DNA of 64,000 nt from Escherichia coli. Lineage in GTDB: Bacteria; Pseudomonadota; Gammaproteobacteria; Enterobacterales; Enterobacteriaceae. The position numbers are program-made. The stretch lies in assembly GCF_013315695.1 (NCBI RefSeq), contig NZ_CP054353.1; one strand, 5' to 3'. Below, piece by piece: positions 12,001 to 14,499 of this stretch (its first letter is position 1; each line of letters starts with the position of its first letter).

Positions 12001-14499
12001 ATGAAGCCTGTTGAGTGAGATTCACCGGTTCTGGTGCAGAAGCTGCAGATGGCGCAGGGTAAGGACATCTTCTCTTGCCTGCTTAATACAGGACAACAGT
12101 GCTGTTTCTGTGGTTAATGGCACTATACCCTGTATCACTGCATTGTCTTACAGCAACTGGTGAGGGCTGGCATAAGTTGCCGGTGTTTCGGTAGAGTCAC
12201 GGCCATCCACCACGCGGAGTGAATAACCGTTTTCAGCGGCCTTATTAATCAGTTCAGTGATATTAACACCATCAATGTCAACGACAATGTGCCCCATATC
12301 CAGCGCCTGTACGTTAACGCTGTCGGCTTCCAGTGTCATCATTTCGCCTCCGGATACTTACCCAGGGTAATGTTATTTACCGTTCTGTAATTGTCGCGGG
12401 TCATCAGGCCGGTCGCCCTGCGAGCCCGGAGGATATCGATGCTGTTTATTAACTGAGAGCGGGTACAGGCGCTGAATCCCGGCTGGTCGGTACGCACCAG
12501 CGCGTATTTTTCCACGAGAAAGTTCACCGCATCACACAGTGAAATGCCTGCCTCAATATGCTGCTCAATCACACGTTCATCGGCAAACGGTGTGTCATTC
12601 AGTGTGAGGCCGTAGTGCTGGTCCAGCAGTCGGGACAGCAGTATCTGCCAGATTTCAACAGGAGACGGGCGAGAACTGGCCGCCTGCCCGGGTAATACAG
12701 GTAATGTTTTCATACTGAAGATTTTCCTGATATGCAGATATAAAAATGGGAAAGTGGCGTGGTGAAAACACCAGGCCGTAGCAGAAGGCTATTCTGGAGA
12801 GTTAATTTTTCATTTCGGGCGTCGGATAAACAGCCAGATAAACGTAACCACAACTGCTGAGGGTATCGGCTTCACAGGCCAGCCCCTTCGCATACAGCGT
12901 GACGGTATGCTGAGTGCGGGGATTCAGTTCACCGCTGGTGAGCATGAGTTCCAGTTGTTTCATCAGCAGCGGAAAGGCCTGGTCCAGGGGGTACGCATCT
13001 GCATCGCTGGACAGGCCTCTGATACCGGCGCGGTCGGCAAGGTAATGCAACCGGTTACCCTCCTGCACCAGACGTGCCCCGAAACAGGGCGTCACGGTGC
13101 AGGGCAGCCCCCACTAGGGGCGGTCGTGATTGTCGTCGGGAAGTGTTGTCCCGGGGAGTGTGTCTGACACGATAAAATCCTTACAGAAAATCGGTTAAGA
13201 ATGGTCCGGTGGTGGCGATAATTCTGCTCATCAGAATTCCCACTCAGTTCAGGGTGACGCTCATCAGTCGGACATACGGGCCAAAACTGTCCTTACGGCG
13301 TTCAGCAAACACGGCCAGCACACCGGGAATATCCTGCACTTCACGACCGGTATACGCTTCAGCACTGCCGTGCCAGCGGTATTTACCGGTACAGAACGGA
13401 AAAAGACGGGATGTCGGATGTTGTTGGTGAATACGCATGGCTTCACCACGGGTGATAATTTTCATAATGGGATACCTCTGAAGACAGAAGATAAAAGTGA
13501 AAACAGGTGTGATGTGGTTGTGACGGGTTAAAGCAGACCATGTTCGGCAAAGGAGAAAACCTGGCTGCCACCGACTATCAGATGGTCCGGCACCCGGATA
13601 TCCACCAGGCCCAGTGCCTGTACCAGACGTTCCGTGATAAGGCGGTCTGCCTTGCTGGGTGTGACTTCACCGGACGGGTGATTGTGTGCCAGCACCACGG
13701 CAGCGGCATTGTGGTACAGGGCGCGTTTAATCACTTCCCGGGGATGGACTTCCGTGCGGTTGATGGTGCCGGTGAAGAGGGTTTCACCGGCAATCAGCTG
13801 ATTCTGGTTATTCAGATACAGCACCCGGAATTCTTCACGCTCCAGTCCCGCCATGTTCAGAATCAGCCATTCCCGTGCCGCACGGGTGGAGGTGAAGGCC
13901 ACGCCGGGTTCATGAAGATGGCGGTCCAGGGTTTTCAGGGCCCGCTGAATGAGGCTGCGCTCGCCGGGCGTCATCTCTCCGGGCAGAAAGGAAAGCTGCT
14001 GCATTGTCCCTGCCTCCATTCAGTCGATGATGCGCATAATGGCGCTGCATTCCGGATGCTGCAGGGCATAATCCCGCAGCCGGTAATAATGAACCGTCAT
14101 GGCATAATTCTCTGTACGACAGGCGTGATGGCTGTACGCCATCAGACAGGCGGCAATGCCGGCGGCTTCCGGGCTCATTTCAGCGCGGTTACCGTTCATG
14201 ACGTTAAACAGCACCCATGTTTCGTCATCATCGTCATCCGGTTCGGGTGCCATAAATGCGCCACCGTTGTTCAGGGTGTACAGATTCCAGATACCACCGC
14301 AGTAGTCTTCATACAGACGGTCCATCCAGCCGAAGACCCGGGGCTCCAGGGTCACCCACTGTGGAATGAGGCCAAAATGCTGCGGCCAGAAGCTGATGCG
14401 CTGTTCATCAGGGACTATGGTGGCAACCAGTTGTTGCAGGCCAGTCTCCGGTGCACAGGCCGAAGAGGTGGTGTTCTGAGACAATGTTTGTAGTGGTCA

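Follow-up and report, generated by a model that had tools for sequence, protein, structure and literature searches.

An inherited amber codon at Trp19 of the antitoxin gene cbeA beside an intact cbtA toxin gene in Escherichia coli

The stretch analysed here, 64,000 nucleotides of Escherichia coli contig NZ_CP054353.1 (assembly GCF_013315695.1) and hereafter the window, carries a cbeA-cbtA (yeeU-yeeV) type IV toxin-antitoxin pair in which the antitoxin gene is interrupted by an early amber codon and the toxin gene is complete. The pair occupies the CP4-44 position, flanked by cobUST/asnV and yeeX(tmaR)/yeeA, and belongs to a minus-strand cluster in the order antirestriction gene, yeeS, yeeT, cbeA, cbtA, yeeW. 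The cbeA gene (13170..12802, minus strand) runs from a GTG start at 13170-13168 to a TAA stop at 12804-12802, and its native Shine-Dalgarno sequence, TAAGGA, lies at 13178..13183 on the same strand. A spacer of 88 nt (12714..12801), the length reported for CP4-44 of K-12 (PMC5371832), separates it from cbtA (12713..12339, minus strand), which encodes 124 amino acids. As expected for the family, cbeA directly precedes a toxin gene of the cbtA family in the same orientation.

Translation of 13173..12799 on the minus strand gives VSDTLPGTTLPDDNHDRP, a stop, the segment WGLPCTV...YPTPEMKN and the terminal stop. The premature stop is a TAG at 13116..13114 (minus strand; CTA on the plus strand at 13114-13116) in place of the TGG of Trp19, the first tryptophan of the conserved PWWGL motif. 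An earlier account made from the DNA alone, the sequence-only reading, had reported TAG at this position where tryptophan is expected, and all of its coordinates are correct. It had also remarked on the GTG start of cbeA, which is indeed present but is not anomalous, as GTG is the annotated cbeA start in K-12 MG1655 and in all intact alleles sampled. When the stop is restored to tryptophan, the resulting protein of 122 amino acids aligns over residues 1-122 with E. coli YeeU (PDB 2H28, E 1e-78) and over residues 18-117 with positions 1-100 of the 101 of the Pfam model PF06154, CbeA_antitoxin (E 2.4e-50), and the cbeA of the window matches the restored protein at 98.4% identity by tblastn. NCBIfam holds no model for CbeA, CbtA, YeeT or YeeW, so that family membership of the pair rests on Pfam and the PDB. 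An uninterrupted reading frame for the full CbeA domain is absent, the TAG standing at codon 19.

An intact twin in strain D8 (L003) has TGG at Trp19 and is very close to the window, with just 2 differences over 980 nt and 2 over 1125 nt in a wider comparison. The distribution of the two codons was followed in 5,426 complete E. coli genomes with 55-mer queries in which the variant base is central, such that every 28-base megablast seed spans the variant. The TAG query was found in 43 genomes, at one place in each and always on the chromosome. The TGG query matched 6,716 places in 4,044 genomes, and no match at all came from queries with a different central change, indicating that the search forces the central base and that the method is valid. 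Carriers of TAG were isolated from humans, pigs, poultry, cattle, a panda, river water, soil and a cave. The closest relative used for comparison, the bloodstream isolate AF3 (NZ_OZ547117.1, reverse complement), shares the TAG and matches the window at 99.98% identity. It shows 10 mismatches across the 64 kb, of which 7 fall in window positions 1-33173, aligned without gaps, and 3 in 32971-64000. A single-base change might be suspected of being a sequencing or assembly error, but the same base in 43 independent complete assemblies from different platforms and countries, six of them with the haplotype of the window, rules this out, and we assign the idea practically no probability. The sequence-only reading had named resequencing to TGG as the finding that would overturn the stop, and these assemblies effectively answer that point in favor of TAG. 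The amber allele of cbeA is confirmed as real and inherited.

The allele is also already annotated in public. In its carriers, the RefSeq/PGAP annotation gives a 101-amino-acid 'type IV toxin-antitoxin system YeeU family antitoxin' that starts at the CTG codon of Leu22 (13107..12802, minus strand). The entry for the amber allele in AF3 is WP_128857213.1, and those for ambers of other haplotypes are WP_071792336.1 and WP_044863316.1. The CTG start is an annotation rule of the pipeline and is no evidence of initiation at Leu22. It is an ordinary tolerated polymorphism of the known CbtA/CbeA type IV system.

The W19 amber is found on at least four sequence backgrounds. Haplotype A is that of the window and of L001 and L002 and is carried by at least 6 genomes; haplotype B, represented by L004-L009, resembles K-12. 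The other two are L010, on another island whose toxin is a different member of the cbtA family, and L011, a decayed copy that lacks a toxin. Between the window and the haplotype-B amber allele, 19 of 980 nt differ, and the identical tracts shared around the TAG by these backgrounds are only 184, 90 and 39 nt long. From these sequence comparisons, independent mutation appears more parsimonious than transfer, with very short conversion tracts as the alternative. The first 160 nt of cbeA are the same in haplotypes A and B except for the TAG. Over the whole genes, the two haplotypes differ in cbtA by 7 synonymous and 0 nonsynonymous changes and in cbeA by 3 synonymous and 6 nonsynonymous nucleotide changes. 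Judged by these substitutions, cbtA is under purifying selection and cbeA under relaxed constraint, which would make the toxin the more constrained partner.

The position of the amber suggests how it arose. In intact alleles the sequence is CCC TGG TGG, with a Dcm site, CCTGG, at 13114..13118 (minus strand); the window reads CCTAG, and the changed base, 13115, is opposite the methylated second C of CCAGG. The change is a G>A transition at a Dcm 5-methylcytosine pair. Amber hotspots at Dcm 5-methylcytosines were, according to the account in PMC12606429, first described in lacI by Coulondre et al. 1978. When all CCWGG sites of cbeA and cbtA were listed with the outcome of 5-methylcytosine deamination, the sole other Dcm-derived amber possible in cbeA was at Q64, and 22 genomes, representing more than one background, carry this allele (CAG>TAG). 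The nonsense changes outside Dcm sites that were searched in the same 5,426 genomes, W19 TGA, Q36 TAG and Q72 TAA, were found in none. These patterns are suggestive of an origin by 5-methylcytosine deamination at the Dcm site, which we consider likely. The genes dcm and vsr lie outside the 64-kb window. The Dcm ambers of lacI show the same G:C>A:T change at the methylated C of CCWGG and, as in cbeA, a nearby in-frame GUG. Unlike lacI, the cbeA amber is a natural polymorphism, its putative hotspot is judged only from position and recurrence, and its restart is only a candidate.

Among other natural nonsense alleles, W20 TAG was found in 25 genomes and W20 TGA in 4, so that of the four nonsense codons that a single base change can create at these two positions, three (W19 TAG, W20 TAG and W20 TGA) occur in nature, together in 72 of the 5,426 genomes. 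The state of the adjacent toxin gene differs among these alleles. In the W20 amber set (L012-L016), cbtA is frameshifted in 4 of the 4 CP4-44 loci sampled. One Q64 amber locus (L018, flagged 'internal stop') has an intact cbtA, and in another (L017) cbeA and cbtA are both broken. This pattern of broken genes across lineages fits a module under weak selection that decays slowly and in no fixed order.

The toxin gene of the window is intact. Its protein is 100% identical to K-12 CbtA, with 2 synonymous nucleotide differences between the genes, and it covers positions 1-112 of the 112 of Pfam PF06755 (E 3.5e-58), which bears out the claim of the sequence-only reading that a full-length cbtA follows the broken cbeA. 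Both R15, needed for the interaction of CbtA with MreB, and F65, needed for that with FtsZ (PMC5624674), are present. Controlled expression of this allele had been proposed as a check of its toxicity; the identity of the protein with K-12 CbtA, which is toxic on overproduction (PMC5371832, PMC5624674), effectively supplies the answer.

The repeated appearance of the amber next to a conserved toxin raises the possibility that loss of CbeA is adaptive, with a low level of freed CbtA activity being beneficial, for example, in biofilm formation or stress tolerance, and ambers being selected repeatedly. Such selection would be consistent with the amber on several backgrounds, with the purifying selection on cbtA (0 nonsynonymous and 7 synonymous differences) set against a relaxed cbeA (6 and 3), and with the early biofilm of K-12 antitoxin deletions, which is 2-4-fold higher (PMC5371832). 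However, the carriers, at ~1% of genomes, give no indication of a sweep, a mutational hotspot alone can produce recurrence, and the frameshifted toxin of the W20-amber lineage, together with the loss of both genes in L017, is what neutral decay predicts. We regard adaptive loss as improbable.

Full-length CbeA would still be made if the TAG were decoded as a sense codon, whether through a suppressor tRNA or through natural readthrough. Of the stop codons of E. coli, TAG is used least and is the leakiest, and it accounts for three of the four nonsense alleles observed in cbeA. Basal UAG readthrough is, however, typically well below a few percent, the W20 TGA allele also exists, the window encodes no suppressor tRNA (its only tRNA genes being three for tRNA-Asn, GTT), and the carriers are 43 unrelated wild isolates rather than laboratory supE strains. 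Readthrough as the source of a working antitoxin is very unlikely.

A more substantial question is whether a shortened CbeA is made from a start downstream of the stop. The GTG-initiated open reading frame (ORF) that the sequence-only reading placed after the TAG is present and in frame; it is the longest conventional ORF after the stop, begins at Val26, 18 nt past the stop (7 codons after), and runs to the native stop (13095..12802, minus strand), so that its candidate restart product would have 97 amino acids. A Shine-Dalgarno-like GGGGG (13108..13112, minus strand) lies upstream of it. Starts were ranked by the predicted duplex of their upstream region with the 3' tail of 16S rRNA. The native GTG at 13170, with TAAGGA at a spacing of 6 nt, scored -5.9 kcal/mol; the CTG of Leu22 at 13107, which the GGGGG run abuts at a spacing of 0 nt, scored -7.8 kcal/mol; and the GTG of Val26 at 13095, with GGGGG at ~11 nt, scored -8.4 kcal/mol. 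A perfect AGGAGG (13064..13059) 7 nt from the TTG of Leu41 (13050..13048) scored -10.8 kcal/mol and is the strongest ribosome-binding-site-like signal of the cluster. Since the first 160 nt of cbeA are shared by haplotypes A and B apart from the TAG, intact alleles should have this AGGAGG/TTG Leu41 site as well.

Structure and conservation give a divided picture of what a protein begun at Val26 would retain. In an AlphaFold (AF2) model built from an alignment of 24 sequences, which is of moderate quality (mean predicted local distance difference test score, pLDDT, 66.8), residues 1-24 have a pLDDT below 50 and no secondary structure, and the first strand comprises residues 30-37. The Val26 product would span Pfam PF06154 positions 9-100, without positions 1-8, and include the helix and every predicted strand. 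Among Escherichia, Salmonella, Yersinia, Citrobacter, Enterobacter, Hafnia and Erwinia, the tail before PWWGL differs in both length and sequence, and the solved paralog YfjZ (105 amino acids) has only 4 residues before the position of W19. W20, G21 and L22, each at least 90% conserved in 24 diverse family members, lie outside the product.

From such evidence it can be argued that a functional antitoxin is still made, with ribosomes that end at the TAG or bind GGGGG reinitiating at Val26 and the 97-amino-acid CbeA restraining CbtA. The in-frame GTG ORF with a Shine-Dalgarno-like duplex stronger than the native one speaks for it, as do the variable and disordered-looking nature of the tail that is lost and its shortness in YfjZ. 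In E. coli, translation is well known to restart downstream of early amber codons, lacI and T4 rIIB being the precedents. Slight further support comes from the concentration at W19/W20 of the nonsense alleles that occur in nature, in 72 genomes as opposed to none for Q36 and Q72, and from the toxin, which is intact at all sampled W19-amber loci that have one. Against a functional restart, the Val26 product would lack the conserved W20, G21 and L22, a spacing of ~11 nt is long for a Shine-Dalgarno sequence, the better internal site at Leu41 would yield a product without the first strand, and the model on which the disorder of the tail rests is moderate. The CTG start in RefSeq, being an annotation rule, adds no evidence for it. 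Persistence of the allele is moreover explicable without a working product, as the Q64 amber stands beside an intact toxin in L018 and antitoxin deletions in K-12 are harmless. A truncated CbeA from Val26 is possible, its activity is doubtful, and a functional restart as the explanation of the allele seems to us rather unlikely. A stronger form of the idea would make the WW motif (codons 19-20) a recurrent natural switch, in which early nonsense is tolerated or favored by virtue of the Val26 restart and the short CbeA tunes dosage or activity against the constrained toxin; we give it only a slim chance.

The explanation we prefer, and hold with good confidence, is that of an inherited amber in a dispensable antitoxin, tolerated as ordinary decay. 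A G>A change at the Dcm-paired base would have given the W19 amber in a heavily reduced CP4-44-like cryptic prophage remnant, and the same amber would arise repeatedly, or be copied in very short patches, on several backgrounds. It would then persist because the antitoxin is dispensable: chromosomal cbtA is weakly expressed, CbeA neither binds nor represses the toxin, and CbtA can be neutralised by other antitoxins of the cbeA family. What is observed directly is the sequence itself, how the allele is distributed among genomes and the identity of the toxin; the dispensability of the antitoxin and cross-neutralisation by its paralogs are taken from the literature. In K-12, single and triple deletions of cbeA, yafW and yfjZ leave growth unaffected, the mRNAs of the cbtA-family toxins and their antitoxins are low compared with relBE, and the operon is autoregulated by neither toxin nor antitoxin (PMC5371832). 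As the work of Masuda (2012) is described in PMC5371832 and PMC5624674, K-12 CbeA acts on FtsZ and MreB by filament bundling and does not bind the toxin. An antitoxin that neither binds its toxin nor is needed for viability means that a toxin without an antitoxin presents no paradox. The weak transcription and the harmless antitoxin deletions of K-12 (PMC5371832) also favor, of the two possibilities offered by the sequence-only reading, a silent toxin over a truncated antitoxin.

Two further effects may contribute to tolerance. YafW and YfjZ neutralise CbtA when co-expressed (PMC5371832), and the AF3 genome has 4 places that match the cbeA-cbtA query, that is, three more besides this locus, which might buffer the loss. 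In addition, without a restart, 400 nt of untranslated mRNA extend from the TAG to the cbtA ATG, with a C/G ratio of 1.3-2.0 in several 78-nt windows, and the early nonsense codon would be expected to reduce cbtA transcription through Rho-dependent polarity, which may likewise act as a buffer. A truncated CbeA from the Val26 restart would be a bonus and not a requirement. The Dcm origin, the polarity and the restart all stand as proposed steps of this account.

Several observations weigh against the explanation by Dcm mutation and neutral tolerance. The synonymous sister 5-methylcytosine position of the same Dcm site (P18, CCC>CCT) is changed in only 1 genome, and the W20 nonsense alleles, found in 25 (TAG) and 4 (TGA) genomes, are outside Dcm sites. 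The synonymous G21 GGA occurs in 1,448 genomes as an old paralog polymorphism, which indicates that genome counts track allele age and clonal sampling and not mutation rate; counts of genomes with single-base variants were for this reason dropped as a strict proxy for mutation rate. On the side of the toxin, cbtA is intact in 10 of the 10 sampled W19-amber loci with a toxin gene, and its 7 synonymous versus 0 nonsynonymous differences suggest that it is kept as a working gene. The intact toxins at W19 ambers, compared with the frameshifted cbtA in 4 of 4 W20-amber loci, are compatible with some residual antitoxin activity of the W19 allele. Dispensability, finally, is known from K-12, which is another lineage than this strain.

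Of the known systems, the closest is CbtA/CbeA of K-12 (YeeV/YeeU, CP4-44, b2005/b2004), which shares the chromosomal site, the gene order yeeS-yeeT-cbeA-cbtA-yeeW, the GTG start and the 88-nt spacer. CbeA is identical to its K-12 counterpart at 115 of 122 positions and differs by the amber at codon 19 and six substitutions. The pairs YfjZ/YpjF (CP4-57) and YafW/YkfI (CP4-6) belong to the same Pfam families and have a spacer of 20 nt, compared with 88 nt for cbeA-cbtA. Residue 5 of YfjZ aligns to W19 of CbeA, and both YfjZ and YafW keep the W-G-L motif that the Val26 product would lose. Neither is encoded in the window, in which a tblastn search with restored CbeA found no second cbeA/cbtA copy. 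For this type IV system, with its dispensable antitoxin and cross-protecting paralogs, an intact 'orphaned' toxin beside a broken antitoxin is no paradox. The allele offers a clean natural case in which an amber codon falls at a site of Dcm methylation and recurs on several backgrounds. Were the truncated CbeA to be active, it would map a dispensable part of the protein and cast doubt on what the conserved WGL motif contributes, a modest refinement; importance beyond annotation is small.

The surroundings of the pair are much reduced, the CP4-44-like remnant consisting of six small genes only. Upstream of cbeA and on the same strand are the antirestriction gene (14484..14020), a yeeS/radC-like gene (14004..13528) and yeeT (13465..13244); downstream, yeeW (12148..12342), a DUF5983 gene, overlaps the cbtA stop by 4 nt. 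An IS3-family element with a programmed-frameshift transposase (14497..15674, minus strand) lies 12 nt upstream of the antirestriction gene, is oriented like the cbeA-cbtA cluster and stands in place of the rest of the CP4-44-like element, with flu, yeeR and other genes of K-12 CP4-44 absent. Its insertion may have deleted or substituted the promoter of the cluster. A promoter scan, which as a whole performed no better than on shuffled sequence, found no sigma-70-like match in the yeeT-cbeA interval on the minus strand. PADLOC returned no matches to known anti-phage defence systems among the six cluster proteins.

Elsewhere in the window, an ISL3-like ISEc53 transposase gene (7743..8963) and a gene for a four-helix-bundle protein of the ClbS/DfsB family (7206..7724), both as annotated in AF3, lie between sbmC and dacD, where to our knowledge K-12 has no insert. 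A yeeJ-like inverse autotransporter gene is in pieces at ~30901-33765, and its part with Ig-like domains is annotated in AF3 as frameshifted, with an internal stop and incomplete. The yersiniabactin island fills ~34-64 kb of the window. Within it, irp1 (39990..49354, minus strand) is broken both by an in-frame TAG (44680..44678) and by a frameshift around 43430-43571, and irp2 (49442..55549, minus strand) by an in-frame TGA at 49972..49970, both stops being outside Dcm sites; NCBI flags both genes as pseudogenes in the near-identical AF3. Yersiniabactin synthesis has probably been lost by the strain although fyuA, ybtPQXS and ybtA are kept.

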